Below, piece after piece: positions 979 through 30,089 of a DNA stretch of 44,568 nucleotides. Made by a program: the position numbers and the translations under genes. Source of the DNA: a virus. The notes under the pieces were generated by a model that was not told the origin of the DNA, did no database searches, and was given only the letters and a program-made list of their open reading frames with translations. How positions within the stretch are numbered: position 1 is the stretch's first letter; each line of letters starts with the position of its first letter. The stretch is from the UHGV virus genome UHGV-0171754; one strand, given 5' to 3'.

Positions 979-994
979 TGTAGTATTCTCCAAT

Positions 995-1016: not shown

Positions 1017-1046
1017 ATATTAACACCCGCTATTTAAGCGACCAAA

Positions 1047-1772: not shown

Positions 1773-1833
1773 AATGAACACTCCTGTTTAGATATACGGT
1801 TCAATGATACAGCACGCGCAGAATAGCGCCAAA

Positions 1834-2256: not shown

Positions 2257-2849
2257 TATTTCACCTTCGAATTAATTTCTGCCGCTACGACGCGAACAAT
2301 CCCCGCGGGCGCTTGTTTACTCCAGCCATACTCAAGTCGCTGCGCGTATGGCACGTTGTTAGTAAACCAGATCGACCCGTATTCACTCGAATCGTAGTGC
2401 GCCAGCACTTCACGCCCTGCGGCTAATGTTGCCGTTCCGGCCTTGTCCACGCGGTCAATAGCACCAACAGCCGGGCGGTCAAACGTCACCTGCCAGTTCC
2501 CCCGGAAGCGTCCGCCGGTGTAATTCTTCGCGGCCCAGCCACGCTGGCGGAACGTGACGTTGCCATTTTTAGTCTTGAATGATACCAGCACGCTGGCGTG
2601 CTTTTTCTGCCCGCGCTTCAGTTTGCCACCATTCTTGCGACGCTGCGCGGCGTTCACCTTGTTCGCGTGCTGGCGGGCCAGCGCGTAAGCCCTGTTAATT
2701 TTCCACCGGCGAGGGTCGCCCACCGGGGAGATCTCAATAAGGCGTCCGAGTATTTGCATCCCGTACGCCCGCACCGCCTTATCGTTGTTCTCCTTCGTCT
2801 TATCCACCCACGTAGCAATAGTGGCGGCGAATGAGTAGACTTCAGCCAC
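2256..2849 (-). CDS. Tail completion protein (gpZ-like)
   Basis: 197 aa; GTG start 1 nt after upstream stop with AAGGGG RBS; size and position match lambda Z. Confidence 0.45.
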   Translation of the reverse strand: MAEVYSFAATIATWVDKTKENNDKAVRAYGMQILGRLIEISPVGDPRRWKINRAYALARQHANKVNAAQRRKNGGKLKRGQKKHASVLVSFKTKNGNVTFRQRGWAAKNYTGGRFRGNWQVTFDRPAVGAIDRVDKAGTATLAAGREVLAHYDSSEYGSIWFTNNVPYAQRLEYGWSKQAPAGIVRVVAAEINSKVK

Positions 2850-2850
2850 G

Positions 2851-3204
2851 TTAGCCCCTTAGCTGTAGTTGAAACAGCATGGTCTGGCCTGCCGGTTGCA
2901 GGGGGTTTGGATTGATAACCCGGTAGTCTGTATTGTTCAGGCTAACCAAATCCCCGACCTTTACCTGATTGACGGCCTGACACAAAAACTTCACATCACC
3001 GGCAACGATACGCGTCCCGTCGATCTCGCTCGGCTTGTACTCCTCTCGAAGACCGATGACGTCAAACGAGGTCGGAGGGATGACCACTTCGTCGCCGTCT
3101 ACGCGGTCGACTGTACCAGGACGCGTCACCGTAGCCGTCATGCCGTACTTTTTAATCAGCGGATTGACTTTCCGCTTTAACCCCGCGTAATTAAAGCCCG
3201 CCAT
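2851..3204 (-). CDS. Head-tail joining protein (gpFII-like)
   Basis: 117 aa from ATG (MAGFNYAG) with GGAGG RBS; position between connector and tail completion genes. Confidence 0.5.
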   Translation of the reverse strand: MAGFNYAGLKRKVNPLIKKYGMTATVTRPGTVDRVDGDEVVIPPTSFDVIGLREEYKPSEIDGTRIVAGDVKFLCQAVNQVKVGDLVSLNNTDYRVINPNPLQPAGQTMLFQLQLRG

Positions 3205-3307
3205 TATCATCCTCCTGTACCGGTGGTTCCGGTTCTGGCGCTGGTTCCGGTTCTGGTTGGCGTTTAGTATTTGCGGCGATAATAGCCGCCAGTAATGCAG
3301 GATTCAT
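3191..3307 (-). CDS. Small Pro/Glu-repeat ORF (38 aa), hypothetical
   Basis: MNPALLAAIIAANTKRQPEPEPAPEPEPPVQEDDNGGL; ATG overlaps upstream stop (TAATATG); below the 60 aa track threshold; built on a tandem DNA repeat. Confidence 0.25.
   Translation of the reverse strand: MNPALLAAIIAANTKRQPEPEPAPEPEPPVQEDDNGGL
3224..3255. repeat. Tandem direct repeat ggttccggttctgg x2
   Basis: Two copies separated by cgct; encodes the PEPEP repeat on the minus strand. Confidence 0.7.
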
Positions 3308-3308
3308 A

Positions 3309-3809
3309 TTACCCCCGGAATACATCAAAATTACCCGCTGCGTTGCCGTCTGAGTCAATCCAGTGGCCCAGCAAGCCATCCCACCACGGGAACGAGACAC
3401 CGCTACCAATCGTCGCAGGGTCATATTCCATCGTGATCGGGCCAACAGTTTCGCGGATAGTCTCCTTACCGCTGCCCACAGGAGAAATATCAACCTCGTC
3501 CGCCACCAACATCGCCAACCGGTAAACGGCTTGCTCAACGGCAACGGGGATTGATGCGAAGTCTACTATTTGCCCTGCAGGCACTACTGCCAAAACTTCA
3601 GTGAGCGTGTCGCGCACCGGCTTGCCGTCAGATGGGTAATTGATGCGAGGCCATGCGTCGATGCCTGTCTGGTCTGCGGGTTCGCCGATCCAGTTGATGC
3701 CGTTAAGGAAGTCATTAACGACGGTGAGGTATCGCGTTGCATCGCTCAGCGTGACTTCAACGCCTCGCGCTGCGGCATAATCGACAAAGGTTTGCGGGTC
3801 GCCATACAT
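3309..3809 (-). CDS. Head-tail connector/adaptor protein (gp6-like)
   Basis: 166 aa from ATG (MYGDPQTFVDYAAARG) with GGAG RBS; immediately downstream of major capsid gene. Confidence 0.5.
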   Translation of the reverse strand: MYGDPQTFVDYAAARGVEVTLSDATRYLTVVNDFLNGINWIGEPADQTGIDAWPRINYPSDGKPVRDTLTEVLAVVPAGQIVDFASIPVAVEQAVYRLAMLVADEVDISPVGSGKETIRETVGPITMEYDPATIGSGVSFPWWDGLLGHWIDSDGNAAGNFDVFRG

Positions 3810-3824
3810 TTCATTCACTCCTAT

Positions 3825-3848
3825 AAAAAAGGCGGGCATAAGCCCGCC
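3825..3848 (-). terminator. Attenuator/terminator after major capsid gene
   Basis: Stem ggcgggc/gcccgcc with 4 nt loop, T-run on minus strand. Confidence 0.5.
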
Positions 3849-3867
3849 CCTTTGGGATGTGCGCCCG

Positions 3868-4968
3868 TTAAGACGCGGTAGTCTCAGTCAGCGTAACCAG
3901 TACGCCAGCCGTTTCCTTGATGTGACGGGTCGGCACTTCCTGTGCGGCCTGGGTCTTACGACGGCCTTTAGTATCACCATCACCCACAGCGCCAACATCT
4001 TGAACGGTTGCCGGTGCGTTGTCTACCTGGCCCTGGTCCAGCTCCCAGTTAGCGGAAGTGGTGATGTCGGACAGTTTGAACGAGCGGACGCCTTCGATCG
4101 GGGTACGAGCGGACGCCTTCAGACGATAGCCTTTAACAGCCACGTTGAAGTCGAACTCACCCTGCCACCAGCGCTCGATGTTCTCGTTACCGCCTTTCTC
4201 CTGCGCCAGCATATCAAGGCCGTTGGTGGTAACTGCAACCGCGCCAGGGACCAGGCCCAGCATGTTACCAGCACCCATAGCATCGGCAGCGGCATCGGAG
4301 ATAATGAAGCGACGGCCCAGGCCATCTCCCATTACCTGGAGATCGCCAATTGCGAATACCTGCTCGGCAGACGGGAGCGCCTGGTATGCAATAAAGTTTG
4401 CCCAGGTAACGCCGTCCATAAACCACGATTTAATCAAAGACGCCTGATCGCCGAACTTAGAAGCCGCCAGCGGGAAGTCTGCCAGGGTCGGGAAGGTACG
4501 ACCGCCAACGCCGTCAACGCGCGCCGGTTGGGTGTATTTTGCCGCTGCGTTGCTTTCGATCGCCGCTTTACCCGCACCGATACCCGCTTTCAGGTAGTGC
4601 AACAAAATCGCTTGAGTGGCCTGCGCCGCAATCTCAGCCGCAACGCTGTTAACGTTGGTTTCGATCTTAGCCATCATAGCCTTAGTGATTGCCACCGGAC
4701 CCACTTTCGCGGACAGGTTGACGGAGTTGGTCAGCATACGCGCCAGCACTTTTGCGGTCGCCGGAGTACCTACAGGGGCATAGGCGTTACGGTCGGTAAC
4801 TAGGTTGGCGATCAAGCCTACGGACATTTTTTCTACAACATCCTTCAGCACTTCACCCGTACCGAGAACAACAGCGCCATTTGCGGCGGCGTTGAACACG
4901 TTCAGGTTATCGGGGATCATTTGCGTAACCGCGGTGACGAGTTTACGCTGGAACACTGTTAAAGACAT
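3868..4968 (-). CDS. Major capsid protein
   Basis: 366 aa; AAAGGA RBS 7 nt before ATG; position after scaffold and before connector genes; sequence looks like a major capsid protein of the HK97-fold class; hairpin terminator follows. Confidence 0.8.
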   Translation of the reverse strand: MSLTVFQRKLVTAVTQMIPDNLNVFNAAANGAVVLGTGEVLKDVVEKMSVGLIANLVTDRNAYAPVGTPATAKVLARMLTNSVNLSAKVGPVAITKAMMAKIETNVNSVAAEIAAQATQAILLHYLKAGIGAGKAAIESNAAAKYTQPARVDGVGGRTFPTLADFPLAASKFGDQASLIKSWFMDGVTWANFIAYQALPSAEQVFAIGDLQVMGDGLGRRFIISDAAADAMGAGNMLGLVPGAVAVTTNGLDMLAQEKGGNENIERWWQGEFDFNVAVKGYRLKASARTPIEGVRSFKLSDITTSANWELDQGQVDNAPATVQDVGAVGDGDTKGRRKTQAAQEVPTRHIKETAGVLVTLTETTAS

Positions 4969-5065
4969 ATCGAAATCCTTTGAGTTGTGAGCATTCGCCC
5001 AGTACCGTTAATGTTACCTTAGATTTACGCGCTCGCAAAATCGCCCGCTTTCGCGGGCAATTTGC

Positions 5066-5767
5066 TTACTCGTCGCCCATTTTAGCGATGATTTCACCAG
5101 CCTGTTTCGTCAGATCGGTGATGCCGAAGCTGTGGCCCATAGAGATTTTCGACTTCACATCTTCGACAACATGCGTCGGTTTGCTCGGCGCACCACCGGC
5201 TGGCGTGCCAGCCAGGACGGATGCAAAATCGGCGTTATTACGGAACTCTTTTTCAAGCTCTTCCATAGTCAGCGCGGACGGTTTACCATCCTGCAAGACA
5301 CGCACCTTCAAGCTGCCGTCTTCGCCGTCTTCCAGCGTCAGGCGGTCCATTACGTGGCGTTGCATGATTCCAGCATTCTTACCGAACAGCTTCGAGGCCA
5401 AATCTTTGGCAGCGCTGCCGATGGTTAGATCGTGGATCTGCTTGCGGTAGGCTTCGATTTTTCCCGATGTGTCCGCTTCATGTTTTGCGAACTTATCTTT
5501 CCAGGACTTATCGATCGCTTCGAGGTCGCCATTTTTGCGCGCGGCGGCTTCCTCTTTCTCTTTCGCAAGGCGCTCAGCTTCGGCGCGACGTTCGGCTTCT
5601 GCTCTCTTCTCGCTAACCAGCTTCGCGTTGTTGTCTTTCAGACCCTTGATCTCCGCCTGTACTTCTTCGGCGGTCATGAACGTGGATTTATACCCATCGC
5701 CATCGGCAACAAATAAAGCCTTCATGCCTTCTGGCAACGCGTCATATTCTGCTTTAGTAAGTTTCAT
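5066..5767 (-). CDS. Scaffolding protein
   Basis: 233 aa from ATG (MKLTKAEYDAL) with AGGGGGA RBS; charged coiled-coil-like (KRAEAERRAEAERLAKEKEEAAARK); sits between morphogenesis and capsid genes. Confidence 0.6.
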   Translation of the reverse strand: MKLTKAEYDALPEGMKALFVADGDGYKSTFMTAEEVQAEIKGLKDNNAKLVSEKRAEAERRAEAERLAKEKEEAAARKNGDLEAIDKSWKDKFAKHEADTSGKIEAYRKQIHDLTIGSAAKDLASKLFGKNAGIMQRHVMDRLTLEDGEDGSLKVRVLQDGKPSALTMEELEKEFRNNADFASVLAGTPAGGAPSKPTHVVEDVKSKISMGHSFGITDLTKQAGEIIAKMGDE

Positions 5768-5857
5768 GCTATCCCCCTGGGATTGTGGCAAAGCGGGCCA
5801 CCCGCTTGACTTCACGCCTTAATATTATCAGCGATAAAAATAATCGCAAAATTCGCT

Positions 5858-5902
5858 TGCACTGCGGGAATTGGTTGCGCTATATTGGTTGCACACCAAC
5901 AA
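5858..5902 (+). promoter_or_regulatory. Sigma70-like promoter (TTGCAC-18-TATATT) with two TTGGTTGC octamers and a TTGGT-N5-ACCAA palindrome over the start site
   Basis: -35 at 5858-5863, -10 at 5884-5889, octamers at 5874-5881 and 5888-5895, palindrome at 5888-5902; near-identical to the leader at 15946-15960. Confidence 0.5.
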
Positions 5903-5915
5903 TGAGGACATAAAA

Positions 5916-6680
5916 ATGAGACTGACGAAAGACATTAAAAATCAGATCCTAGCTAACATCCTGCGCGACCACGAAATCGCTACCGAAGCCAAAACAATCA
6001 TGATGGACTCTCGCGACCTGGCGTACGCAATCACGCTGGACTGTATGCCGGACGGCATTCGCACATTCGCCGCGCTACGCGAGCATATCAAGGCAATCCG
6101 CGATGACCAGTCGCAGATGTACGGCGTCAGCGTATACACCAACAAGGCGACGTATAGTTATAACACCGACCGCCCGAAGGGTATCGGCAGCGTTTACGAC
6201 GCCACCTTTGAAATCAACGCAGGCGGAAATGTTCGCACCTTGTCCTTGAGCGGTGACGGTCGCCAATACCGCGTACATCGCGGATACTGGGAAGAGAAAT
6301 ATATGAATAAGCTCTCGCCTGATCTCGGCGATATCGTTCCGGGGTTCGAGACAGTTATGCTCGCGTCAGTGTGCGAAGTGGACGAGGAAGGGAAAGCGCT
6401 GCCGATATATCTCCCACGCGGTCGCGCAGACTACCCGGCGGACCATGACTTCTGTAAGCGCCTGGACCGCAACGACAAGGCACGTCGCGAGTTGCGTGCG
6501 AAGTATGACGCGTTCAAACTCACCGTTACCGGTGTACTGGACCTGCACAATACTGACAAGAAGCTGATTAAAGCATGGCCTGAAGTTGAGCAATTCATCC
6601 CATACCCGGACAAGCCAAAATCCACGGCGGTGGCGCTGGATGTGAAAACACTCAACGAGATTTGCGGCATTCCTCGCTAA
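5916..6680 (+). CDS. Hypothetical protein (254 aa), opposite-strand insertion in the morphogenesis module
   Basis: ATG (MRLTKDIKNQ) with GAGGA RBS 7 nt upstream; own promoter and a bidirectional terminator; no recognisable motif. Confidence 0.7.
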   Translation: MRLTKDIKNQILANILRDHEIATEAKTIMMDSRDLAYAITLDCMPDGIRTFAALREHIKAIRDDQSQMYGVSVYTNKATYSYNTDRPKGIGSVYDATFEINAGGNVRTLSLSGDGRQYRVHRGYWEEKYMNKLSPDLGDIVPGFETVMLASVCEVDEEGKALPIYLPRGRADYPADHDFCKRLDRNDKARRELRAKYDAFKLTVTGVLDLHNTDKKLIKAWPEVEQFIPYPDKPKSTAVALDVKTLNEICGIPR

Positions 6681-6685
6681 CGAAA

Positions 6686-6706
6686 AAGGGGCCATTATGG
6701 CCCCTT
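6686..6706. terminator. Bidirectional intrinsic terminator between convergent genes
   Basis: 9 bp stem aaggggcca/tggcccctt with 3 nt loop, A-run upstream and T-rich run downstream. Confidence 0.6.
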
Positions 6707-6925
6707 AATTATTTGCTGCAACTCCAGCACCTGCGCCCTTAGCTTCGCCCCGCATTCCATATTTTTCACGTCAATCATCAAATCTTCGTCGGGGTCCGCA
6801 GACGGGTTATCGAACTTGCACGGCGGTCGCAGTGCCGATTCCGTTAGCGGCATCAACGGCACGCTGCTTGATCCGCACGCGCTCAGCGTCAAAACTACAA
6901 TCAGGGCGGTTAGGGCGCGTAACAT
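6695..6925 (-). CDS. o-spanin (Rz1-like outer membrane lipoprotein)
   Basis: 76 aa from MLRALTALIVVLTLSAC; lipobox LSAC, proline-rich mature part; reading frame overlaps the 3' part of the i-spanin gene. Confidence 0.55.
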   Translation of the reverse strand: MLRALTALIVVLTLSACGSSSVPLMPLTESALRPPCKFDNPSADPDEDLMIDVKNMECGAKLRAQVLELQQIIKGP

Positions 6926-7136
6926 ATTTAACAACCTCTTTTGTGATAGTCCGGTATTCCACGTCGCGGGCTTGTTCTGCCTGCACGGAGCGCTCAATTA
7001 CTTTAGTTTGCTGCCGTTGGGCTTGGGATTGCGCTTCTTGCGCCGCCTTCGCCACTACGCCAGCGCGGTAGGAGTCACCTAGCCAGAATCCTACCGCCAG
7101 ACCCATAACCAGTCCAATAGCCGCATATTTAATCAC
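6807..7136 (-). CDS. i-spanin (Rz-like)
   Basis: 109 aa; N-terminal transmembrane segment (IKYAAIGLVMGLAVGFWLG), then charged coiled-coil region and a C-terminal Cys; GTG start overlapping upstream stop. Confidence 0.6.
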   Translation of the reverse strand: MIKYAAIGLVMGLAVGFWLGDSYRAGVVAKAAQEAQSQAQRQQTKVIERSVQAEQARDVEYRTITKEVVKYVTRPNRPDCSFDAERVRIKQRAVDAANGIGTATAVQVR

Positions 7137-8232
7137 GCCATAACCCCCGGTTTTTAAGCTGTGCGATAGTCATTAGTTCGCCGGAATCGGTGAACATCTT
7201 CGGGACTTTCACGCCGCGCATAATCTGGTCGGCGCGTTGCACCCCGTATAATTCCTCCAGGATATGGCGCGGCTGGCGCTGCACCCATGAGAAGAAATCA
7301 GTCTGCGCGTCGACCTGCTCACTCAGCAATCTGCCAGCGTCAGCCTTCAGCGCCGGACGCTTACCACTGGGCCAATCTTCCATACCTTTGACTTTCCACG
7401 TCTCCGTCGAACGGCAGCAATAATGTAGCTTGCCTGGACCAGCGCCATATTGTGATCCAGCCACCACTTTCCCGCCGCGCTTTCCTTTGGTGTCGGGAGT
7501 AACATCAACCGGATAAAACAGGCGATCGCGTAGCTGGCACATGGGAGAAGTATGCGTGTCCAATGTAGATAACCATTGGCGACCTTCGAGAATATCGTCA
7601 TTTGCTTTTACCATTAGTTCGCGGGCTGTCGCCGCATAGTGGTTGACTGCGGACTTAACAACGCTTGAGATAGCTTGCGCACTACGACCGCCGAGCGCGC
7701 GCCTCACGTCCGCAATAATTTCCATAGTCGGCTTGCCCTGGATGAATCCGGCGCGCACCTGATTGCCGATCTGCGTCCTGGTCCACTCAGAAAGTGAGTC
7801 AGGCCATTGCATCATCGTATTACCCTGGAACGGGTTTTTAATTGCAGTCGCTGCGATCTGCGCACCGGTCACTACGCCAACCACCTCGACTGCAGGTACG
7901 GCGACCACCGGCTGGATCGCTGCCGTTAATGTGTCGGCGAGATAATCAGCCTCCGTGTCGGCAAACTCCTGAAGGCTTTCAGCCAACGCCTTAAACTCGG
8001 CGCGCAGTTCCGTTTTTACGGTCTTGTCGATTTGCGTTAGCAGGGTTGAAAGTGCCTTGTTGTTCATTGACGATTTGCCATCAAGCAACTCAGTCAGCTT
8101 TCCCAGTAACGTAGGCCGGAACTTCTCCCACATAGCCAGCACCCTTCGCGCCTGGTCATTGCTCAGGCGCTGGGTGAAGATGTGTCGGCGGATCATTCGA
8201 TCCGCCATATATTGATTAATTGTCTTCGCCAT
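7129..8232 (-). CDS. Head morphogenesis protein (Mu F / SPP1 gp7-like minor head protein)
   Basis: About 367 aa from ATG (MAKTINQYMADR); immediately downstream of portal, overlapping its stop. Confidence 0.7.
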   Translation of the reverse strand: MAKTINQYMADRMIRRHIFTQRLSNDQARRVLAMWEKFRPTLLGKLTELLDGKSSMNNKALSTLLTQIDKTVKTELRAEFKALAESLQEFADTEADYLADTLTAAIQPVVAVPAVEVVGVVTGAQIAATAIKNPFQGNTMMQWPDSLSEWTRTQIGNQVRAGFIQGKPTMEIIADVRRALGGRSAQAISSVVKSAVNHYAATARELMVKANDDILEGRQWLSTLDTHTSPMCQLRDRLFYPVDVTPDTKGKRGGKVVAGSQYGAGPGKLHYCCRSTETWKVKGMEDWPSGKRPALKADAGRLLSEQVDAQTDFFSWVQRQPRHILEELYGVQRADQIMRGVKVPKMFTDSGELMTIAQLKNRGLWRD

Positions 8233-22970: not shown

Positions 22971-23141
22971 ATGCGCATTAAAGCCAGCGAAGTAAAAGTC
23001 GGAATGCAGGTATGGTCTAAATTGCTGGGCGAGTATTTCACCGTTGCCGAGATTCGCAACAACGGCGAGGAGATAACCCTTTCCGACGGTATCTTCTCCA
23101 TGTTCGGCAGCGCTGACGCCGTAGTGAGGATTAAGCAATGA
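22971..23141 (+). CDS. Small hypothetical protein (56 aa)
   Basis: MRIKASEVKVGMQVWSKLLGEYFTVAEIRNNGEEITLSDGIFSMFGSADAVVRIKQ; AGGA RBS; stop overlaps polymerase ATG (ATGA); below track threshold. Confidence 0.4.
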   Translation: MRIKASEVKVGMQVWSKLLGEYFTVAEIRNNGEEITLSDGIFSMFGSADAVVRIKQ

Positions 23142-25429
23142 AAGACTTCGAACGCCTTTTTCTCGATACCGAGACATTTAGCGGGGTGGACCTGAAGAAA
23201 GTGGGCGCATACGCCTACGCAGAGCACCCAACAACCGAGATTATGATTTGCACCTACGCCATCGACGAGGGCCGCGTGCAGACATGGGATTGCACAGAGT
23301 CCCCAACAATGCCGCGTGAACTGCGCAAGGCGCTCCGCAGGGTATCCCGCAAGAAAGCAAAAATAGTGATGGCTAACGGCCTCCTGTTTGACCGCCTGGT
23401 CATTCGCGAGAAGTGGGGCATTGACCTGCCAGTGTGCCAGATCGAAGACACCATGATTATGGCCTTTCGACACGCGCTGCCGGGTGGCCTCGATATGCAG
23501 TGCCAGGTGTTGGGCGTTGACGCAGAGCACGCGAAGGATAAGGCGGGCAAGGCGCTGATCAAACGATTCTGTAAGCCAACCCCTAAGACCTACAAAATCC
23601 GCCGCTACACGCGCGAGACGCACCCCGAGGAGTGGGCTAAATTCCTGCGCTATGCCGCGTTGGATATCATCGCTATGAGGGAAGTCTATTGGCGCATACC
23701 GGACTGGGGCAACACGCCGAAGGAAGACGAAATCCTGCTTATTGACCAGTTGATCAATGACCGCGGCTTCTATGTGGACGTTGACCTGGCGAACGCCGCG
23801 ATCAAAGCGGTGCAGGCGCATAAGGAAGAATTGAAGGAAGAAGCCTGGGAGCGCTTCGGCGGTAAGCTGACCGGCAATGACTTCTTGCCCGCGCTGCGCG
23901 ACCTCGCGCCTGCGTTCACGATCCACAACGCGCAGAAATCCACGCTTAACGACCTGCTTGAAGATCCAGACTTCCCTGACGAGGGCAAAGTGCTTATCGA
24001 GATGCGCCTCGGGGCATCATCAACGGCGTCGACTAAGTACAATCCGCTCGTAAATGGGCTGTCTGCCGATGGTCGCCGCCGTGGTTGTCTTCAGTATGGT
24101 GGGGCAAAGCGCACGCTACGCTGGGCCGGTAAGGGCTTCCAGCCGCAAAACCTGGCACGCGGCGAGTATAGCGACGACCACGAAGGGAAGATTAAGCGCC
24201 GTGAAGGCGAGAGCGACGTCGCGTTTTGGGTGCGGTCGCACATGCTTACCAACGGCATCAACTCCCTGTTACGCGGGACCGCACACTGGGCGTATGACAT
24301 ATCGAAGTTAACAGCCTCGACCGTTCGCGGGTGCATTATTCCGGCTAAGGGAAAGAAGTTTGTCGTAGCGGACTATTCTAACGTGGAAGGGCGTGGCCTC
24401 GCCTGGATCGCTGGCGAGAAAACCGCGCTAATGGTGTTTAGGGCGGGTCGCGATATTTATTGTGAAACTGCCGGTAAGATGTTTGGCCTCGACCCGGAAT
24501 ACATTAAAGCCAACCGCAAAGACTTACGCCAGATCGGTAAGGCGTGCGAATTGGGACTAGGCTATGGCGGCGGCGTTGCGGCGTTCTTGCAGTTCGCTAA
24601 AAACCTGGGCCTCGACCTTTACGCGATGGCTGACGTGATGAAGGGCACATTCCCAGACCACATATGGGCGGCGGCGAAACGTGGTTATGAGTACGCCCGA
24701 ATCAACGAAGCGAAGCGCCCGCCGAAGCCTGGCAAGAAGGACGAGCGCCCAACTTATATACTGCCGAAAAACGTGTGGTTGACGTGTGACGCGATCAAAC
24801 GTATGTGGCGTGAGGCCCACCCGAAGACGGTAGCCTTTTGGGCCGAACTGGAAGACGCGGTGTTGTGTGCAATCCGCAATCCAGGCAAAGCGTACTGGGC
24901 TGGCGCGAACGTTCGCCCGGATGGCAGGAAAGCGCTTAAGATTGTTCGCACGAAGGCGAAGCATGACCCAACCTTCGACGAGGAGCGCGACGACCCGAAC
25001 GCGGCGGGGTGGTGGCTTAAAATTGAGTTGCCGTCAGGGCGCATCATGAGTTATCCGGGCATCGCGCTGTCTGTCACTACCGAGATCGACGAAGATACTG
25101 GCAAGAAACGCACCAGCACCCGCATTAAATACCAGGGCGAGAATCAGACGACGCGCCAGTGGGGCTTCCAGTATACCTACGGCGGCAAACTGACGGAAAA
25201 CATCGTGCAGGCGCTGTGTCGCGATATCCTCGCATGGTCCATGCCTGGCGTTGAATCCGCGGGATACGAGATCGTCCTGTCAGTGCACGATGAATTGATC
25301 ACCGAAGTTCCGGATACTGACGACTACACGACCGAGGAGCTATGCGCGCTGATGTGCGACCTGCCTATTTGGGCGAAAGGGTTCCCACTTGCCGCCGAAG
25401 GCGATTGTATGTATCGCTACCGCAAGTAG
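23138..25429 (+). CDS. Family A DNA polymerase with 3'-5' exonuclease domain
   Basis: 763 aa; exo motif FLDTETFSG; polymerase motif A DYSNVEGRGLAWIAGE, motif B RQIGKACELGLGYGGG, motif C SVHDELITEV. Confidence 0.9.
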   Translation: MKDFERLFLDTETFSGVDLKKVGAYAYAEHPTTEIMICTYAIDEGRVQTWDCTESPTMPRELRKALRRVSRKKAKIVMANGLLFDRLVIREKWGIDLPVCQIEDTMIMAFRHALPGGLDMQCQVLGVDAEHAKDKAGKALIKRFCKPTPKTYKIRRYTRETHPEEWAKFLRYAALDIIAMREVYWRIPDWGNTPKEDEILLIDQLINDRGFYVDVDLANAAIKAVQAHKEELKEEAWERFGGKLTGNDFLPALRDLAPAFTIHNAQKSTLNDLLEDPDFPDEGKVLIEMRLGASSTASTKYNPLVNGLSADGRRRGCLQYGGAKRTLRWAGKGFQPQNLARGEYSDDHEGKIKRREGESDVAFWVRSHMLTNGINSLLRGTAHWAYDISKLTASTVRGCIIPAKGKKFVVADYSNVEGRGLAWIAGEKTALMVFRAGRDIYCETAGKMFGLDPEYIKANRKDLRQIGKACELGLGYGGGVAAFLQFAKNLGLDLYAMADVMKGTFPDHIWAAAKRGYEYARINEAKRPPKPGKKDERPTYILPKNVWLTCDAIKRMWREAHPKTVAFWAELEDAVLCAIRNPGKAYWAGANVRPDGRKALKIVRTKAKHDPTFDEERDDPNAAGWWLKIELPSGRIMSYPGIALSVTTEIDEDTGKKRTSTRIKYQGENQTTRQWGFQYTYGGKLTENIVQALCRDILAWSMPGVESAGYEIVLSVHDELITEVPDTDDYTTEELCALMCDLPIWAKGFPLAAEGDCMYRYRK

Positions 25430-25497
25430 CGGAAATGTTGCTTTTAGCGGAAACGTCGGGCAATATTGTCTGGCGTTTTCTTTTTCGGGGGTGTATA

Positions 25498-26099
25498 TGA
25501 AACATTGTGGGCGTTGTAATACGGATAAAGATGAGTCCGCTTTCAACAAGGGTCAGTCGTGGTGCGCCAAATGCATGGCGGCGTATAAGAAAGAGAGACG
25601 GGATAAGGAAAGAGGAGCGCCGCCGCGCGAAGTATGGCGAGAGTATACCGGGGAAGTCGTAACATGCCGTACGTGCGGAGAGCGCAAGCGGCTCACGCCG
25701 GAAAACTTCCGGCCCGGAAACCGGGCAAGCCAGTCTCATATTCGTAAAGAATGCCGGTTGTGCGCTAATAAGTCCCGCCGTGAGTACAACCACCGGTCAC
25801 CAGAGGTCCGCGCATACTATAAGCTCTTTCAGTACCGTAAGGCGGACGAAAGGAAGGGGTTAAAAACCGACCTTACCACCGAGGACGTGCTACGCCTTAC
25901 TTCTCAGCCATGCGCGTACTGCGGATTCACCGGCGACAATGGCGCGGACCGACTCGACAACGCAGTAGGCCATACGAAAGATAACTGCGTACCGTGCTGC
26001 GTAGAGTGCAACATAGCCCGCGGTGACCGGTTTACCCCGGACGAAATGAAGAAGTTTATTGGGCCTGCCATAGCTGCCGTAAGGAAAAGCCGACAATGA
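25498..26099 (+). CDS. HNH endonuclease with N-terminal Cys-rich zinc-ribbon region
   Basis: 200 aa from ATG (MKHCGRCNTDKD) with GGGGG RBS; C-terminal CAYCGFTGDNGADRLDNAVGHTKDNCVPCCVECNIARGD. Confidence 0.6.
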
Positions 26100-26374
26100 C
26101 ACCAGAAGGCAAGATCCAAAGTCACCTTATGAAGTTGGTTAAAGCCGTAGGCGGATTCTGCCGTAAAGTGGCATGGGAGGGGCGCGCGGGTGCGCCCGAT
26201 CTGATTATCATCATCAACGGCAAAATAGTGTTCGTCGAAGTGAAGCGCCCAGGCGGCAAACCGAAGCCGCACCAGATACGAGAACATGAGCGAATGGCCC
26301 GCCGCGGTGCGGACGTTCGCGTTATCGACAACATAGCAGACTGTGATTTATTGGTTGCTGAGTTGGTCGCGTAG
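26096..26374 (+). CDS. VRR-NUC domain nuclease
   Basis: 92 aa; PDLIIIINGKIVFVEVKRPGGKPKPHQ signature; start overlaps upstream stop (ATGA). Confidence 0.65.
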   Translation: MTPEGKIQSHLMKLVKAVGGFCRKVAWEGRAGAPDLIIIINGKIVFVEVKRPGGKPKPHQIREHERMARRGADVRVIDNIADCDLLVAELVA

Positions 26375-26414
26375 CGGTATAGTGGGCCGGTTAGCACTAT
26401 CGAGGATTTTAGAA

Positions 26415-26588
26415 ATGGTTGAAGAAAAACGTTGCAGTAATTGCGGCTGCGTTAAACCGCTGTCCCAGTTCCATAAATACACCGGTAAGACTGCGCGAAG
26501 CCCGGACGGGTATCGGGCAGAGTGCAAATCGTGCCGCAATAAAAAAGAGCGCGAACGGCAGCGCCGCTACCGAGCAGAGCAAAAATAA
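26415..26588 (+). CDS. Small zinc-ribbon protein (57 aa)
   Basis: ATG (MVEEKRCSNCGC) with GAGGA RBS; CxxC...CxxC pattern resembling the N-terminus of the HNH protein. Confidence 0.4.
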   Translation: MVEEKRCSNCGCVKPLSQFHKYTGKTARSPDGYRAECKSCRNKKERERQRRYRAEQK

Positions 26589-26631
26589 TTAATACGGCGG
26601 GCTTGTCCCGCCATTTTTTGGAGACATGACG

Positions 26632-26850
26632 ATGAAAGAACATTATCGACTCACCACACTGGGCGAATGCAAACCAGGCGATCGCGTATGGTTTATCGCG
26701 GGCATGAATAACCCGCTGCCGTTAACGGTGTGCTGGCAAAAATTTAATAGCTTCCGGGCGACGGGTGTACACATCGGACACAGCACCAACTATGACGCCA
26801 CAAAAAGGAACTGGAACAGTGAAACCGAAGTCTGGAAAAAGGCGGAATAA
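26632..26850 (+). CDS. Small hypothetical protein (72 aa)
   Basis: ATG (MKEHYRLTTL) with GGAGA RBS. Confidence 0.4.
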   Translation: MKEHYRLTTLGECKPGDRVWFIAGMNNPLPLTVCWQKFNSFRATGVHIGHSTNYDATKRNWNSETEVWKKAE

Positions 26851-26854
26851 AGAT

Positions 26855-28279
26855 ATGGCACGTTTCCGACGTCGCGAATATCAGAAGTTGATAACCGCGT
26901 TCATCCTCAAGCATAAGCGATGCAATATATGGGCGACAATGGGGTCGGGTAAAACCGGCGCGACCATGTGGGCGCTGAATAAAATGTTCCAGACCGGTAT
27001 CCTGTCCAACCAGGAGGACCGCGTACTGGTGCTGGCCCCGCTGCGCGTTGCATCTGGCACATGGCCCCCGGAACAGGAAAAATGGCGATTCCCCGCCTTG
27101 CTGGTAGTAGACGGCACCGGGTCTGAAAAAGACCGTATAGCCGCGCTTGAGAGCGGCGCTAACGTAGTTTGTGTTAACTATGATGTAGTTGAGTGGCTGG
27201 TTGACTATTACGGCGATGCGTGGCCCTTTACGGTCGTTGTTGCCGATGAATCCACTAAGCTGAAAGGTTATCGAAGCAAGCAGGGAAGTAAGCGTGCCCG
27301 TGCGCTGGCAGCGATCGCACATAAGCACGTCAAGCGCTGGATTAACCTGACCGGCACACCCGCACCAAACGGACTGAAAGACCTGTGGGGTCAGACGTGG
27401 TTTGTCGACGGCGGCGAACGCCTCGGCAGTAGTTATAAGGCATTCACTGATCGCTGGTTTATTAGCAAGCCTGTTAAGCCTGGCAGCTTTACTATGCAGC
27501 ACGCCCCGCTTAAGAACTCCGAGAAAGAAATACAACAACGCCTGTCTGACGTATCGCTCACCGTTGATGCGGCTGAATACTTCGGATGTGACAAGCCAAT
27601 CTATACGCCGGTTGTTGTGGACCTGCCGAAGAAAGCCCGCAAGATCTACGACCAGTTTGAAAGCGAGCTATTTGCCGAACTGGAAAGCGGAACGGTGGAG
27701 GCGGCGAACGCTGCTTCGAAGACCATTAAGTGCCTTCAGCTTGCTTCCGGGGCCGTGTATAAGGTCGACGAAGACGGCGAACGGACCGACGAATGGGTGA
27801 AAATTCACGACGCTAAACTGGACGCGCTGGAAAGTATCATGGAGGAGTTGAACGGCGCACCGTTGCTCGTCGCGTACCAATACAAGCATGATCTGGCGCG
27901 TCTCAAGAAGAAATTCCCGCACGGCGTTGCGTTGGGCAAGGGCAAGCAGGGCAATAAGGATATGGAAGCGTGGAATAGGGGCGAGATCCCCATCATGTTT
28001 GCGCACCCTGCCTCGGCGGGTCACGGCCTCAACCTGCAGGATGGCGGGCACCACCTTGCTATCTTCTCCGATACCTGGAACTTTGAGCACTTTTCGCAGA
28101 TCGTGGAGCGTATAGGGCCGGTTCGCCAGATGCAAGCCGGACACCCCCGTCCAGTATTCGTCTATATTATCCAGGCGCGCGGGACACTGGACGAACTGGT
28201 CGCCGAGCGTCGCGACAGTAAGCGAGATATTCAGGACGACTTGATGGAATACATGAAAGCTAAAAAGGCGCGCAAATGA
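26855..28279 (+). CDS. SNF2-family (superfamily 2) helicase
   Basis: 474 aa from ATG (MARFRRREYQ); motif I ATMGSGKTG, motif II VVADESTKL, motif III LTGTPAPNG. Confidence 0.75.
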   Translation: MARFRRREYQKLITAFILKHKRCNIWATMGSGKTGATMWALNKMFQTGILSNQEDRVLVLAPLRVASGTWPPEQEKWRFPALLVVDGTGSEKDRIAALESGANVVCVNYDVVEWLVDYYGDAWPFTVVVADESTKLKGYRSKQGSKRARALAAIAHKHVKRWINLTGTPAPNGLKDLWGQTWFVDGGERLGSSYKAFTDRWFISKPVKPGSFTMQHAPLKNSEKEIQQRLSDVSLTVDAAEYFGCDKPIYTPVVVDLPKKARKIYDQFESELFAELESGTVEAANAASKTIKCLQLASGAVYKVDEDGERTDEWVKIHDAKLDALESIMEELNGAPLLVAYQYKHDLARLKKKFPHGVALGKGKQGNKDMEAWNRGEIPIMFAHPASAGHGLNLQDGGHHLAIFSDTWNFEHFSQIVERIGPVRQMQAGHPRPVFVYIIQARGTLDELVAERRDSKRDIQDDLMEYMKAKKARK

Positions 28280-28971
28280 TTATCTGGTCATTATTTGACG
28301 GCAGCGGCTTGATGATTGAGCGTGCTGCCGAGATGGGTCATAAGTGTTTTTGCTTCAACTACTCCGAAGCCGACCACGGATCGTACCTGGACTACCGGAT
28401 TTATGGGCGCGGGATCCGCTATCGTAATGAGTTTATAGACCTGGACTTCGTGGACCGCGCGATGAATGGTGATTTCGGTACGCCGGATATCATATATGCG
28501 TTCCCTCCGTGTACGGATCTGGCAGTTAGCGGTGCGCCCGCTTTTCCGCGCAAGCGGGCTAAAGACCCTGCCTTTCAGCTTAAGGCGGTGCGCACCGCGA
28601 AGATTGCCGCTTACCTGGGTGATTTCTTTGAGGTGCCATATATGATTGAGAATCCGCGCAGCGTGCTATCCACTCAATGGCGTAAGCCGGACCACTCGTT
28701 TGACCCGTGGGAGTATGGTGGCTATTTGCCAGAGGATGACGTACACCCGTTATTCCCTGAATACATCAACGCCCGCGATTCATATCCGAAGCTGACCTGC
28801 TTATGGACCGGCAACGGCTTCCGTATGCCAGAGAAGAAACCTGTTTTCGTTGAAAAAGGGTACTCGAAGCAGTATAGTCGCCTCGGGGGCAAATCTGCCC
28901 GCACCAAATTAATCAGGTCGCTCACCCCGCGCGGCTTCGCGATAGCGGTCAATGAGGAAAATTTAAAATGA
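28276..28971 (+). CDS. Short DNA cytosine-C5 methyltransferase-like protein
   Basis: 231 aa; motif I-like SLFDGSG, motif IV-like FPPCTDLAVSG (Pro-Cys), motif VI-like ENPRSVL; no obvious target-recognition domain. Confidence 0.5.
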   Translation: MIIWSLFDGSGLMIERAAEMGHKCFCFNYSEADHGSYLDYRIYGRGIRYRNEFIDLDFVDRAMNGDFGTPDIIYAFPPCTDLAVSGAPAFPRKRAKDPAFQLKAVRTAKIAAYLGDFFEVPYMIENPRSVLSTQWRKPDHSFDPWEYGGYLPEDDVHPLFPEYINARDSYPKLTCLWTGNGFRMPEKKPVFVEKGYSKQYSRLGGKSARTKLIRSLTPRGFAIAVNEENLK

Positions 28972-29291
28972 ATACTACATTCGAAGCCATCGACTTTTCC
29001 GTGGCAATGACCAATCAGCTTTTTTCCTACGACAGCAAGACCGGCGTCATTCGCCTGAAATCCACAGGCTGCAAGATCGGCAACCTTAACACTGCCGATG
29101 GTGGCACGCGCATCGAGTGCAACGGCAAGACGCTGTCTGGAGCGCGCGTGGCGTGGATTATCGCGACAGGCAATACAATCCCTCCAGGCTACGCCGTTGT
29201 GTGTCGCCAGCGCACGCCAGGGCACTATGGCAACCGCATTAGTAACCTGTATCTGGTAGACGTTGCGCGCGACCCAAATTTTTATTCGTAA
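28968..29291 (+). CDS. Putative HNH-type homing endonuclease-like protein
   Basis: 107 aa; FSYDSKTGVIRLKS and HYGNRISNLYLVD segments resemble HNH endonuclease N- and C-terminal motifs. Confidence 0.35.
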   Translation: MNTTFEAIDFSVAMTNQLFSYDSKTGVIRLKSTGCKIGNLNTADGGTRIECNGKTLSGARVAWIIATGNTIPPGYAVVCRQRTPGHYGNRISNLYLVDVARDPNFYS

Positions 29292-29296
29292 ATTGG

Positions 29297-29325
29297 TTGC
29301 ATAACCGTATTGGTTGCATTATATT
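29297..29325 (+). promoter_or_regulatory. Candidate promoter (TTGCAT-17-TATATT) with two direct TTGGTTGC octamers
   Basis: Octamers at 29295-29302 and 29310-29317; second ends 2 nt before the -10, same spacing as at 5874/5884 and 31235/31245. Confidence 0.45.
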
Positions 29326-29372
29326 GAGGGTGTCCGGTTTGGACGCCCTTTTTAATACCCGGAGACAGTGAT

Positions 29373-29624
29373 ATGAAATCATTATTTTTCGACTACGACG
29401 GCGACCTTCGATTTTGGGTGCTCCTCACCCTCATGATTGCCGTTTGTGTTTGCGTACCTGCCGCTGGTGTCGCGGGTGCCTACTACTCGGAACGCTACGA
29501 ATGCCGGACTGTGTACGCAGAGCAAACAGGTCGCAACACCCAATGGCGCTATGGTGTCTGCTGGTTAGAGATGGACGGCAAATTTATCCCCCGCGATGAA
29601 ATCCGCACTACGGAGACTAAATAG
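29373..29624 (+). CDS. Small membrane protein (83 aa)
   Basis: GGAGA RBS; hydrophobic segment WVLLTLMIAVCVCVPAAGVAGAYY. Confidence 0.5.
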   Translation: MKSLFFDYDGDLRFWVLLTLMIAVCVCVPAAGVAGAYYSERYECRTVYAEQTGRNTQWRYGVCWLEMDGKFIPRDEIRTTETK

Positions 29625-30089
29625 ATGAAAATTTTACAAGAAGAAAAAGATTACTGGGCCGCGCAATGCCTCGAAGCCCGCGAACAGGCCGAACGTGCGA
29701 ACGCGTTGGCCGACACCAACCAGGCTCTCTATGAAGGCGAGAAGAAAGTGCGCGAGGAATTAGCGGAACGCTTCGTACTTCTCTTCGAACTGATGGGGAT
29801 TATGCAGCGCACCGGATACACAACCAGCGTTGCGCTAAACCGCATCACTGCCGACGGGCTGCGTGAGCACTGCAAACGTGCGGAGGAGTACGTGCGACCG
29901 AAGGGTCGCACGTCTGAGATCGACCGTAAAGACTTGGTGCTTATGGCGTGGCGCAACCCTACAAACGGCAGCTTCTACCCGGACGCTCGCCCGCTTAGTG
30001 CCGAGGAGACAAAGCGCGTGCAACGCATTCTCAAGACCGGCAATAAAATCGCCCTGTATGCGATAGACACCGACCATGCAGAAGAGTGA
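29625..30089 (+). CDS. Hypothetical protein (154 aa)
   Basis: GGAGA RBS; ATG directly after upstream stop. Confidence 0.5.
   Translation: MKILQEEKDYWAAQCLEAREQAERANALADTNQALYEGEKKVREELAERFVLLFELMGIMQRTGYTTSVALNRITADGLREHCKRAEEYVRPKGRTSEIDRKDLVLMAWRNPTNGSFYPDARPLSAEETKRVQRILKTGNKIALYAIDTDHAEE

Follow-up and report, generated by a model that had tools for sequence, protein, structure and literature searches.

Origin and function of the small genes downstream of the polymerase

The small genes lying just downstream of the DNA polymerase gene in the viral genome UHGV-0171754 raise the question of whether they are homing endonucleases or part of recombination-dependent replication. Both possibilities were offered by an original prediction, which recognized in this region an HNH endonuclease with a Cys-rich N-terminus, a VRR-NUC nuclease, a 57 aa zinc-ribbon protein and, further downstream, an HNH-like gene. 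The stretch of DNA that was analysed (44,568 nucleotides, hereafter the window) is from a Dhillonvirus, i.e. an HK578/SSL-2009a-like coliphage, its positions 23000-30000 showing about 90% identity to 160 phage records, every one of which is Dhillonvirus-type. All four open reading frames claimed near the polymerase are present and prove to be real, conserved genes; only the start of the region, previously placed at 25498, is off by one, as the ATG of the 200 aa ORF is at 25497. The features considered here are the following:

25406..25429, plus strand: last 24 nt of the DNA polymerase gene, with cassette-linked substitutions
25430..25496, plus strand: cassette leader, with a hairpin, a T-run and a GGGGG Shine-Dalgarno sequence
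25497..26099, plus strand: predicted free-standing endonuclease of 200 aa, with PacI-type profile and fold matches
25497-25601, plus strand: zinc ribbon 1 of the 200 aa protein (aa 1-35), Cys4
25656-25796, plus strand: zinc ribbon 2 of the 200 aa protein (aa 54-100), Cys4, with a helical linker after it
25902-26096, plus strand: predicted PacI-type ββα-metal nuclease domain of the 200 aa protein (aa 136-200)
26096..26374, plus strand: stand-alone VRR-NUC of 92 aa (Pfam PF08774, PDB 4QBN)
26415..26588, plus strand: stand-alone zinc ribbon of 57 aa (ribbon profile, synteny)
26596..26612, no strand assigned: terminator-like GC-rich hairpin directly 3' of the 57 aa gene, with flanking T-runs on both strands (consensus match only)
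28968..29291, plus strand: core protein of 107 aa, a remote HNH_3-type relative (PHROG 99, conservation in 158 records)

A sigma-70 promoter scan of 25200-26900 returned zero sites, and PADLOC gave no meaningful match to any defence system. The phage also encodes several DNA methyltransferase-like genes. On balance, and by a modest preference, we regard the region as a part of the Dhillonvirus replication/recombination module that combines three core genes with one accessory cassette coding for a PacI-type homing enzyme.

The 200 aa protein is a predicted PacI-type nuclease

The 200 aa protein displays CxxC pairs at residues 4/7, 23/26, 57/60, 86/89, 139/142 and 168/171, and matches no Pfam family at E<=0.1, the models searched including HNH (PF01844) and Endonuclease_7 (PF02945). 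Its homologues were gathered by exhaustive rather than word-indexed search; among 57 of them a single protein matches Pfam HNH (E=0.008) and none matches PF02945 at E<=0.01. A profile of these 57 homologues detected the restriction enzyme PacI in the PDB (3LDY, 3ldy_A; E=1.8e-12), with an alignment spanning PacI residues 2-137 of 142. Furthermore, a Foldseek search with the AlphaFold2 model of the protein (pLDDT 95) recovered the same chain, 3ldy_A, as the best match (E=3.4e-6, probability 1.0). Profile and modelled fold hence concur in the prediction that the protein is a PacI-type His-Me finger nuclease, a member of group 20, for which there is no Pfam model. The HNH label given to it earlier holds at the level of the superfamily but not at that of Pfam HNH, its place being taken by the PacI type.

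The kinship is apparent in both architecture and motif. In R.PacI (PDB 3LDY/3M7K; His-Me group 20, Jablonska et al. 2017), as in the phage protein, an N-terminal Cys4 zinc motif precedes a ββα-metal domain that contains a further Cys4 site, and both have the motif G-x-D-R-x-D...G-[Y/H]...N...C-x2-C-N...F-[ST]-x2-E-M. Across the family of the phage protein the conserved form is G-x-D-R-[IL]-D-N-x2-G-[HY]-x3-N-x-V-P-C-C-x2-C-N. The corresponding nuclease-domain residues are C139, C142, D151, R152, H159, N163, C168, C171 and N172, the four cysteines being invariant across the family. PacI is devoid of the canonical His and uses a Tyr from the omega loop instead (PMC5714182; PMC3384342), and the canonical general base is likewise missing from the phage protein, where D151-R152 occupies the D-H position of the HNH enzymes. 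Judging from this alignment, Arg152 takes the place of the His that normally acts as general base, and His159, predicted to lie in the omega loop in the place of the catalytic Tyr100 of PacI, has a putative catalytic role. Of 98 family sequences, 80 have His and 18 have Tyr at the position that aligns with PacI Y100. The phage protein also differs from PacI in its additional N-terminal zinc ribbon (200 aa versus 142), and in being encoded by a patchy free-standing phage cassette as opposed to being a bacterial restriction enzyme. Its two N-terminal Cys4 zinc ribbons are presumably involved in DNA targeting.

The name under which the protein is found in PHROG and GenBank, endonuclease VII, would make it a junction resolver that serves in recombination-dependent replication. 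The name comes with a strong match to PHROG 1035 (E=2.6e-41), and would agree both with the location of the gene inside the replication module and with the ββα-metal fold and Cys4 zinc site in common with T4 endonuclease VII (PF02945). However, the Pfam model of that family fails to match, PacI is the best match in structure and profile alike, and the gene is accessory rather than core, with about 82% of the close relatives replicating without it. Moreover, a core resolvase, the VRR-NUC, already adjoins it. We accordingly hold an endonuclease VII-type role to be very unlikely.

Distribution and flanks of the cassette

Together with its leader the 200 aa gene forms a cassette at 25430-26099 (666 nt). 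In the leader a terminator-like 14-bp hairpin (25449-25480; dG -28.7 kcal/mol, z -3.4) is followed by a T-run and then by the GGGGG Shine-Dalgarno sequence, and thus looks like a terminator or attenuator ahead of the endonuclease gene. In 9 genomes the hairpin has been retained, with 8 one-sided pair-preserving changes and no compensatory pair among them. In the unrelated phage Bas74 a 48%-identical homologue is positioned directly after the polymerase gene, and is preceded by a hairpin and T-run of its own.

The presence/absence comparison across relatives that had been suggested as a check revealed a patchy distribution: the 200 aa gene is found at 90% identity or more in 28 of 158 related records, and the polymerase/VRR-NUC junction is not contiguous in an equal number of them. 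Of 60 records sampled at even spacing, about 30 have an empty junction, about 15 carry a 63 aa ORF and 11 carry the cassette. The empty sites are exact, with the polymerase stop codon overlapping the VRR-NUC ATG in JL1 and directly abutting it in StarDew and UAE_MI-01. A decayed copy is seen in phage bob, where the gene is truncated at residue 154, has lost its catalytic core and is fused to the 63 aa ORF. The slot also accommodates non-nuclease ORFs that are unrelated to the 200 aa gene, namely this 63 aa ORF, which is also found in Stx prophages, a 110 aa ORF in HK578 and a 117 aa ORF in Smarc3.

We compared the flanks of 9 genomes with the cassette and 6 without it. Across the final 900 nt of the polymerase gene 223 sites vary, and 4 of these are fixed differences between the two sets. 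All 4 fall inside the last 24 nt of the gene; there are none in the 2.1 kb to the right. At 25406-25407 the carriers have TGT (Cys) versus ATY/GTT (Ile/Val), and at 25421 and 25423 they have CGC versus AGR, which code for Arg both ways. Serratia phage Smarc3 has the Ile variant. These four substitutions are candidates for a mark of target-site immunity or of co-conversion. In their flanks, carriers are as distant from one another as they are from non-carriers, and several carriers have non-carriers as their nearest flank neighbours. These phages recombine freely, and 6 of the 9 examined carriers cluster together in their flanks, implying that a part of the cassette distribution is vertical. 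The synonymous diversity of the cassette (pS 0.17) is below that of the polymerase (0.34) and of VRR-NUC (0.24) in the same genomes, as would suit a mobile element, but at this level it marks an old element rather than a fresh invader. The pN/pS of 0.10 for the 200 aa gene indicates purifying selection. Foreign base composition was not seen, the GC content being 0.551 for the cassette and 0.546 for the window.

Free-standing homing endonuclease genes, which are not housed in introns, are known from phages, for example the seg and mob genes of the T-even phages. The cassette is reminiscent of these in several respects: a small endonuclease gene is inserted between conserved genes, it is present in some relatives and absent, with exact empty sites, from others, sequence differences lie beside the insertion point, decayed copies occur, and a regulatory hairpin is placed ahead of the gene. 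In contrast to the classical homing genes, its nuclease is of the PacI type and not HNH or GIY-YIG, and its slot also accepts non-nuclease ORFs. From the above features we infer that the 200 aa gene is most likely a free-standing homing endonuclease. In a mixed infection the enzyme would cut cassette-less relatives near the polymerase/VRR-NUC junction, and recombinational repair would then copy the cassette into the cut genome, resulting in intron-less homing. The four substitutions at the end of the polymerase gene might protect the carrier from self-cleavage, or else represent a short co-conversion tract, and the leader hairpin would keep expression of the endonuclease low. There are counterpoints to homing: with non-nuclease ORFs entering the same slot, the patchiness could reflect a place prone to the recombination of accessory genes of any kind; the cassette-linked tract is only 24 nt long and on one side; the clustering of six carriers, the age of the cassette and its unexceptional GC content likewise count against homing; and among characterised proteins the closest is a restriction enzyme.

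In a different reading, the PacI-type enzyme is a restriction-like weapon directed at the DNA of the host or of competing phages, and would spread through a variable slot by homologous recombination of the ordinary kind. Such a role would be in keeping with PacI as the closest solved relative, with the presence of other accessory ORFs in the slot, with the methyltransferase-like genes of the phage, and with group 20 itself, most of whose members are viral and some of which, it has been speculated, may be restriction enzymes of viruses (PMC5714182). It is at odds, however, with the location of the cassette-linked substitutions exactly at the insertion junction, with the same post-polymerase position of the homologue in Bas74, and with the existence of a decayed copy, as is found in the homing cycle. 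Similarly, with its two additional zinc ribbons the enzyme would be expected to recognise a long and rare target, and not a short restriction site. Furthermore, the carrier Teewinot is without most of the adjacent C5-methyltransferase-like gene, which speaks against an obligatory nuclease-methylase pairing there. On the same ground we rejected a restriction-modification-like pairing of the nuclease with this neighbouring gene. A weapon thus appears possible but doubtful, and we retain homing as the preferred reading for the 200 aa gene. It is also the only gene for which the homing endonucleases of the original prediction stand, on account of its patchiness, exact empty sites, decayed copy and junction substitutions. 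The VRR-NUC, 57 aa and 107 aa genes are universally conserved at a fixed position, the very distribution that the prediction itself had named as speaking against homing, and by that standard they are not homing endonucleases.

The core genes of the module

The nuclease call for the 92 aa VRR-NUC was borne out by a score above the cutoff of Pfam PF08774 (27.9 bits versus 23.8) and by the residues D35, E48 and K50 of the PD-(D/E)XK fold. Its ATG overlaps the stop of whichever gene lies 5' (ATGA). It aligns end to end with the 93 aa saNUC of Salmonella phage SETP3 (PDB 4QBN, E=4e-22; Pennell et al. 2014, PMC4103454), with PD...EVK kept in the aligned 'APDL...VEVK'. Stand-alone VRR-Nuc proteins are dimers that cut four-way junctions symmetrically, and saNUC showed only weak activity in vitro (PMC4103454). 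VRR-NUC is a core gene coding for a probable Holliday-junction resolvase, which as a dimer would clear branched replication and recombination intermediates. The suggested link to recombination-dependent replication fits this gene, whose product is closely related to an enzyme that cleaves Holliday junctions.

The 57 aa protein comprises CxxC motifs at 7/10 and 37/40 (C7, C10, C37, C40) and a basic tail, with no nuclease domain. Its gene has its own GAGGA ribosome-binding site, occurs in essentially all of about 160 relatives and is under very strong constraint (pS 0.324, pN 0.011). A PDB sequence search with the protein recovered nothing, and word-indexed homologue searches with the three small genes returned near-identical proteins only. 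BLASTP aligned it to residues 57-100 of the 200 aa protein with 38% identity (E=0.004, 19.6 bits). A ribbon profile built from 56 homologues, leaving out the 200 aa protein of the window, matched it with 39.9 bits (E~2e-14), a score reached by none of 1000 shuffles with fixed Cys positions, the best of which scored 18.3. Among 1007 six-frame segments of the window just 2, the 57 aa and the 200 aa ORFs, matched this profile, and positions 62-109 of PHROG 1035 also matched the 57 aa protein (E=6.6e-10). These comparisons show that the protein and the N-terminus of the 200 aa protein are genuine members of one zinc-ribbon family, with the motif C-x2-C-G-x2-K-P-L...D-G...C-K-x-C. In unrelated viral contigs the ribbon module is found joined to nucleases of the HNH, EndoVII and GIY-YIG types; Pfam has no dedicated model for it, giving weak DUF6510 and Stc1 hits only. 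The zinc-ribbon HNH phage endonucleases (Xu et al. 2013, PMC3592412) have comparable CxxC...CxxC ribbons joined to HNH domains. In distinction to these, the ribbon of the window also exists alone as a 57 aa core protein, and in other viral contigs on EndoVII and GIY-YIG nucleases.

The resemblance between the two proteins had been attributed to duplication. Homology is upheld by the profile score and the shuffles, and the two are true homologues encoded 300 nt apart, as a duplication inside this genome would have it. Yet their phyletic patterns differ, the 57 aa gene being core and the 200 aa gene, limited to 28 records, accessory; their identity is just 38% and the module is widespread. The family consensus also scores higher than the neighbour (39.9 bits against the 19.6 bits of BLASTP), a comparison that is only indicative as the score types differ. 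Moreover, the 57 aa gene is in the same position in Eiauvirus (eiAU), Serratia phage Smarc3 and contig L033, all of which are without the cassette. We give hardly any credence to a local duplication; instead, the presence of the 57 aa gene in about 160 relatives and of the 200 aa gene in 28 implies that the latter arrived on a separate cassette with its own ribbons.

The names attached to the 57 aa protein by databases are inconsistent. RefSeq and PHROG 5558 (E=7.6e-17) term it a Lar-like restriction-alleviation protein, Lar being likewise small and Cys-rich, and some GenBank records make it a KilA-type anti-repressor. However, Pfam Lar_restr_allev (PF14354) does not match at E<=0.1, leaving PHROG 5558 as the source of the name, and no KilA domain was found. 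The strong match to an endonuclease-associated ribbon profile and the fusions of the same module to three kinds of nuclease point elsewhere, and we judge both functions improbable. A frameshift fusion with VRR-NUC was conceivable, as the ribbon reading frame stays open upstream as far as 26343 and shares sequence with the end of the VRR-NUC gene. It was rejected: the ribbon gene has its own GAGGA site, eiAU has a gene between the ribbon and VRR-NUC, and in L033 the VRR-NUC is not adjacent.

Most likely, to go by its domain relationships and conservation, the 57 aa protein binds DNA as a small accessory factor of the module centred on the polymerase. A more specific idea, which we put forward as an unlikely one, is that it is a domesticated targeting domain of a homing endonuclease acting in trans: it could be the subunit that recognises DNA for VRR-NUC, whose gene lies 40 nt upstream, or for the HNH protein of eiAU, or it could shield or regulate a specific site in the replication module. 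In eiAU a canonical HNH gene starts 5 nt after the ribbon gene; BLAST shows no similarity between its product and the nuclease portions of the ribbon-fused proteins in the sample, which speaks neither for nor against a split ribbon-HNH origin.

The 107 aa protein had been labeled HNH-like. A remote kinship is supported by PHROG 99, named HNH endonuclease (E=2e-16), but the match to Pfam HNH_3 (PF13392) is below the cutoff (E=0.07, 13.2 bits versus 24.8) and is confined to profile positions 5-21 of 46, the catalytic half being unrecognisable. Its eiAU homologue is 40% identical, with RVAW...C...GHY..R..NL in common. PDB searches with the protein alone or profiled with this homologue gave no match, and tblastn with the homologue found no bridge to canonical HNH_3 proteins. 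An AlphaFold2 model from 6 near-identical sequences had a pLDDT of 44.5 and was left out of the fold search. As the gene is present at 80% identity or more in 158 records, we interpret its product as a probable core, degenerate HNH_3 relative and not a mobile endonuclease.

Implications

The arrangement is an ordinary one for phages, adding one further member to known kinds of genes, and the value of these findings is mostly in annotation and housekeeping. The names endonuclease VII and HNH for the 200 aa protein are corrected to PacI-type nuclease, and Lar-like and KilA anti-repressor for the 57 aa protein to endonuclease-type zinc ribbon, while the database name homing endonuclease is unsupported for the core 107 aa gene. 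The ribbon module common to HNH, EndoVII and GIY-YIG endonucleases could be defined as a family. Phylogenies should steer clear of the polymerase/VRR-NUC junction of Dhillonvirus, a slot whose content varies. If the in-trans reading of the 57 aa ribbon were true, selfish elements would here have given rise to an anti-nuclease or to a nuclease divided over two genes. If homing by the cassette is true, these phages would provide a tractable E. coli system for a PacI-type homing enzyme in which His replaces the unusual catalytic Tyr of PacI, with carriers and empty-site relatives already at hand in phage collections such as BASEL.

Gene order and genomic context

The segment 23000-30000 has matches in 160 phage records, with identity of about 90%, and almost all of these are Dhillonvirus, including HK578, SSL-2009a, JL1, Sodalis phage SO-1 and several BASEL phages. 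Records resembling this Dhillonvirus include some with odd host labels or size (MG065648.1, OQ221563.1, OQ291023.1, PQ843332.1); identity to this E. coli phage is about 92-94% for those titled Campylobacter phage A144, Acinetobacter phage NJ01 and Salmonella phage Kenya-K19, so their host labels look doubtful, and P-GXEC-L2P5, which at 88.6 kb is twice as long as the genome and aligns in 8 pieces, may thus be an assembly concatemer. The original prediction was confirmed with minor corrections, one being that the 200-aa ORF begins at the ATG at 25497, the predicted start (25498) being one base late.

Genes around the DNA polymerase of the window
First in order: Enc34/gp2.5-like ssDNA-binding protein, then a small ORF
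23138-25429: family-A DNA polymerase
25497-26099: 200-aa ORF
26096-26374: VRR-NUC
26415-26588: 57-aa ORF
26626-26850: 74-aa ORF
26855-28279: SNF2-type helicase
28276-28971: C5-methyltransferase-like gene
28968-29291: 107-aa ORF

The polymerase gene of the window is uninterrupted; that of Sodalis phage SO-1 contains an HNH-encoding group I intron (L002 2123-2881), and that of Pubbukkers (NC_073068.1) is annotated as intein-containing. Teewinot has a 186-bp ORF (L005 5282-5467) in place of the window's 696-bp C5-methyltransferase-like gene, which matches PHROG 757 strongly and no Pfam model. Between the 107-aa gene and a ligase-like gene lies an 83-aa ORF (29373-29624), with counterparts in mckay, Envy and UAE_MI-01 (243-bp ORFs) and missing from SO-1, PNS1, Gluttony and JL1, which therefore represents a second presence/absence polymorphism.

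A multi-state slot between the polymerase and VRR-NUC genes

The original prediction held that the nuclease-type genes may be homing endonucleases, which are patchy across related genomes. The 200-aa gene is indeed patchy, occurring at 90% identity or more in 28 records, with 48%-identical versions in KMB35 and Bas74 (tblastn). A 160-nt query across the empty JL1 junction matched 158 records, in 130 of which the junction is contiguous and in 28 not.

States of the slot in 60 evenly spaced records out of the 158
Uninterrupted junction: about 30
193-nt insert encoding a 63-aa ORF: about 15
Large cassette: 11
Minor variants: 3
HK578-type insert: 1

Direct reading of 15 loci showed that in JL1, which has no insert, the polymerase stop overlaps the VRR-NUC ATG, and that in StarDew and UAE_MI-01 the two directly abut. 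SSL-2009a (L003:2935-3126) and KarlBarth contain the 63-aa ORF, a phrog_1222 member with 60-65% identical ORFs in Stx and lambdoid prophages; HK578 a 110-aa ORF (L010:2853-3185) with relatives in Klebsiella and Salmonella phages; a Serratia phage a 117-aa HExxH ORF (L018:2787-3140); and the window and eight others a cassette of 647-666 nt. The stop of any occupant overlaps the VRR-NUC start in an ATGA. Window 25430-26095 is thus an accessory slot, which is empty or holds the 63-aa, 110-aa or 117-aa ORF or the PacI-type cassette. In phage bob (L013 213-818) a hybrid ORF joins endonuclease residues 1-154 to residues 11-63 of the 63-aa ORF; the endonuclease is truncated at residue 154 and its catalytic core is gone, making this a decayed or recombinant copy.

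The cassette encodes a predicted PacI-type nuclease

The 200-aa protein had no match at E<=0.1 in Pfam or NCBIfam. In PHROGs it recovers phrog_1035 (E=2.6e-41), whose title, 'endonuclease VII', receives no support from Pfam. In an exhaustive HMMER search 15,935 representative clusters passed E<=1e-3; many of the matches are proteins of about 150 aa that span residues 56-199 only, i.e. one ribbon and the nuclease domain. Alignment of 97 of the best matches revealed a near-invariant C-terminal motif, P-C-x-Y-C-G ... G-x-D-R-[IL]-D-N-x2-G-[H/Y]-x3-N-x-V-P-C-C-x2-C-N-x2-[RK]-x-[DN]-x-F-[TS]-x-E-E-M. Against the PDB, a 57-member family profile recovered the restriction endonuclease PacI (3LDY, E=1.8e-12) over residues 2-137 of 142, spanning both its N-terminal zinc motif and its nuclease domain, followed by ordinary HNH enzymes. 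Likewise, the AlphaFold2 model (pLDDT 95) had 3ldy_A as its sole significant PDB structure match (E=3.4e-6). Many giant-virus proteins were also among its matches to viral models, and giant-virus members have been described for His-Me group 20 (PMC5714182). PacI is the textbook His-Me finger enzyme lacking the general-base His, using an omega-loop Tyr instead (PMC5714182, PMC3384342). In the 200-aa protein the 'D-H' position is D151-R152, and, unlike PacI with its Tyr100, it has His159 at the aligned position; among 98 family sequences this residue is His in 80 and Tyr in 18. Together, profile and structural model predict that the protein combines two zinc ribbons with a PacI-type nuclease domain.

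Signatures around the cassette

We compared the flanks of nine phages carrying the cassette with those of six lacking it. Among 223 variable sites in the last 900 nt of the polymerase gene only four differences are fixed between carriers and non-carriers, all within its last 24 nt (25406, 25407, 25421, 25423; an Ile/Val to Cys replacement and an Arg codon change from AGR to CGC), and none is fixed in the 2.1 kb to the right. The Ile form is present in Serratia phage Smarc3, hence the Cys form is derived and cassette-linked. Away from the junction, carrier-carrier distances equal carrier-non-carrier distances; in the left flank the window, PNS1, Gluttony and JLBYU60 are nearest to non-carriers, and six carriers group together. 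Across nine genomes synonymous diversity is 0.17 in the endonuclease gene, 0.34 in the polymerase gene and 0.24 in VRR-NUC; the endonuclease gene has a pN/pS of 0.10, with all catalytic-motif residues intact. In the 67-nt leader a 14-bp hairpin and the T-run after it lie directly 5' of the Shine-Dalgarno sequence (dG -28.7, z -3.4); every carrier retains the hairpin, all changes in it being one-sided and pair-preserving. In Bas74 the 48%-identical gene also lies immediately 3' of the polymerase gene behind its own hairpin and T-run. The base composition of the cassette is not unusual. These signatures agree with an endonuclease gene that is free-standing and functional, has long been resident and moves horizontally, its candidate target lying near the polymerase/VRR-NUC junction, but do not prove homing. 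Since the slot clearly swaps non-nuclease ORFs too, ordinary recombination is a serious alternative route by which the cassette could have spread.

VRR-NUC and the 107-aa gene are core components

Of the four genes originally singled out only the 200-aa gene behaves like a homing endonuclease, whereas VRR-NUC and the 107-aa gene are core genes at fixed positions. The 92-aa VRR-NUC protein scores above the Pfam gathering threshold. It can be aligned over its whole length to saNUC of Salmonella phage SETP3 (4QBN, E=4e-22) and retains the PD...EVK motif. Stand-alone VRR-Nuc proteins are dimeric, Hjc-like and cut four-way junctions symmetrically, the in vitro activity of saNUC being only weak (PMC4103454). 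Presence of the gene at a fixed position in every relative examined points to a predicted core resolvase rather than a homing enzyme, which fits the proposed recombination-dependent replication.

The 107-aa gene is found at 80% identity or more in 158 records; the SSL-2009a copy (L003 5995-6330) is frameshifted near codon 75, giving a different C-terminus and a two-piece tblastn match, and is a pseudogene or the product of a sequencing error. Its proposed HNH-like nature holds only as remote kinship: it matches PHROG 99 (E=2e-16), but its Pfam HNH_3 match is sub-threshold and confined to the first, non-catalytic half of the model. With its homologue in eiAU it has 40% identity and RVAW...C...GHY..R..NL in common. 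By eye, against what we take to be the HNH_3 consensus, there is presumably no His at the general-base position, which is a lead only. PDB searches and BLAST bridging found no match, and structure prediction gave no usable model. The gene is core and encodes no mobile endonuclease but a probably degenerate HNH_3 relative.

The zinc ribbon as a widespread module

The 57-aa ribbon occurs at 80% identity or more in about 158 Dhillonvirus records, with homologues in Edwardsiella phage eiAU (67%) and Serratia phage Smarc3 (50%). Its gene has its own GAGGA ribosome-binding site, a pS of 0.324 and a pN of 0.011 across 15 genomes, in which the protein varies only at residues 2, 13, 33 and the last four. 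Directly 3' of it, before the 74-aa ORF and helicase, a terminator-like GC-rich hairpin (26596-26612) flanked by T-runs on both strands might, within the replication module, terminate transcription in both directions. The RefSeq name 'Lar-like', implying restriction alleviation, is unsupported because the Pfam Lar family does not match.

The suspected likeness between this protein and the 200-aa protein is real homology: a ribbon profile of 56 other proteins scores the 57-aa protein at 39.9 bits, against 18.3 for the best of 1000 Cys-fixed shuffles, and picks out nothing but these two ORFs when run over all 1007 six-frame segments of the window. The 57-aa protein also matches positions 62-109 of the phrog_1035 profile (E=6.6e-10). 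Direct BLASTP against the 200-aa protein likewise aligns it with residues 57-100 (38% identity, E=0.004), a weak match beside the strong one to the family consensus. Because pairwise identity is low and the phyletic patterns differ, the 57-aa gene is not a local duplicate. The earlier interpretation is thus partly right: a single gene of the four is homing-like, the ribbons are homologous and VRR-NUC fits recombination-dependent replication, but the ribbons did not arise by duplication in place. Everything in the region belongs to known kinds, and the phage genus is well sampled.

An IMG/VR scan with the ribbon gave 80 loci. The ribbon reads C-x2-C-G-x2-K-P-L-x-E-F-H-K...D-G...C-K-x-C (loci L035-L098, alignment A6). 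No dedicated Pfam model exists for it, the only matches being weak ones to DUF6510 and Stc1. In Pfam, 53 ORFs that bear the ribbon on distant contigs contained Endonuclease_7 (9), HNH (7), HNH_5 (5), GIY-YIG (4), HNH_4 (2), HNH_2, T5orf172, MUG113 and SegE-type GIY-YIG (1 each) domains, and only a few were stand-alone ribbons. The ribbon is therefore a promiscuous phage-endonuclease module, most plausibly used for DNA binding. Its synteny holds across phage lineages: the order is polymerase, VRR-NUC, 91-aa ORF, unannotated ribbon and, 5 nt later, a canonical HNH gene in eiAU, and polymerase, slot, VRR-NUC, ribbon, small ORF, helicase in Smarc3. In eiAU-183 (L017) the unannotated ribbon (about 4005-4165) and the HNH gene (4170-4637) are in different frames, the annotated HNH start (4113) overlapping the ribbon ORF; they may be a split pair or merely juxtaposed. 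A contig from another phage lineage (L033, IMGVR_UViG_3300007085_000007 919-7680) encodes, in this order, a DUF2800 nuclease, polA, a 70%-identical ribbon, an MT-A70 fusion protein and Nmad5, a nucleotide-modification-associated domain; the ribbon thus travels with polA even where no VRR-NUC is adjacent. We infer that the 57-aa protein is a small putative DNA-binding factor of a polymerase-centred module.
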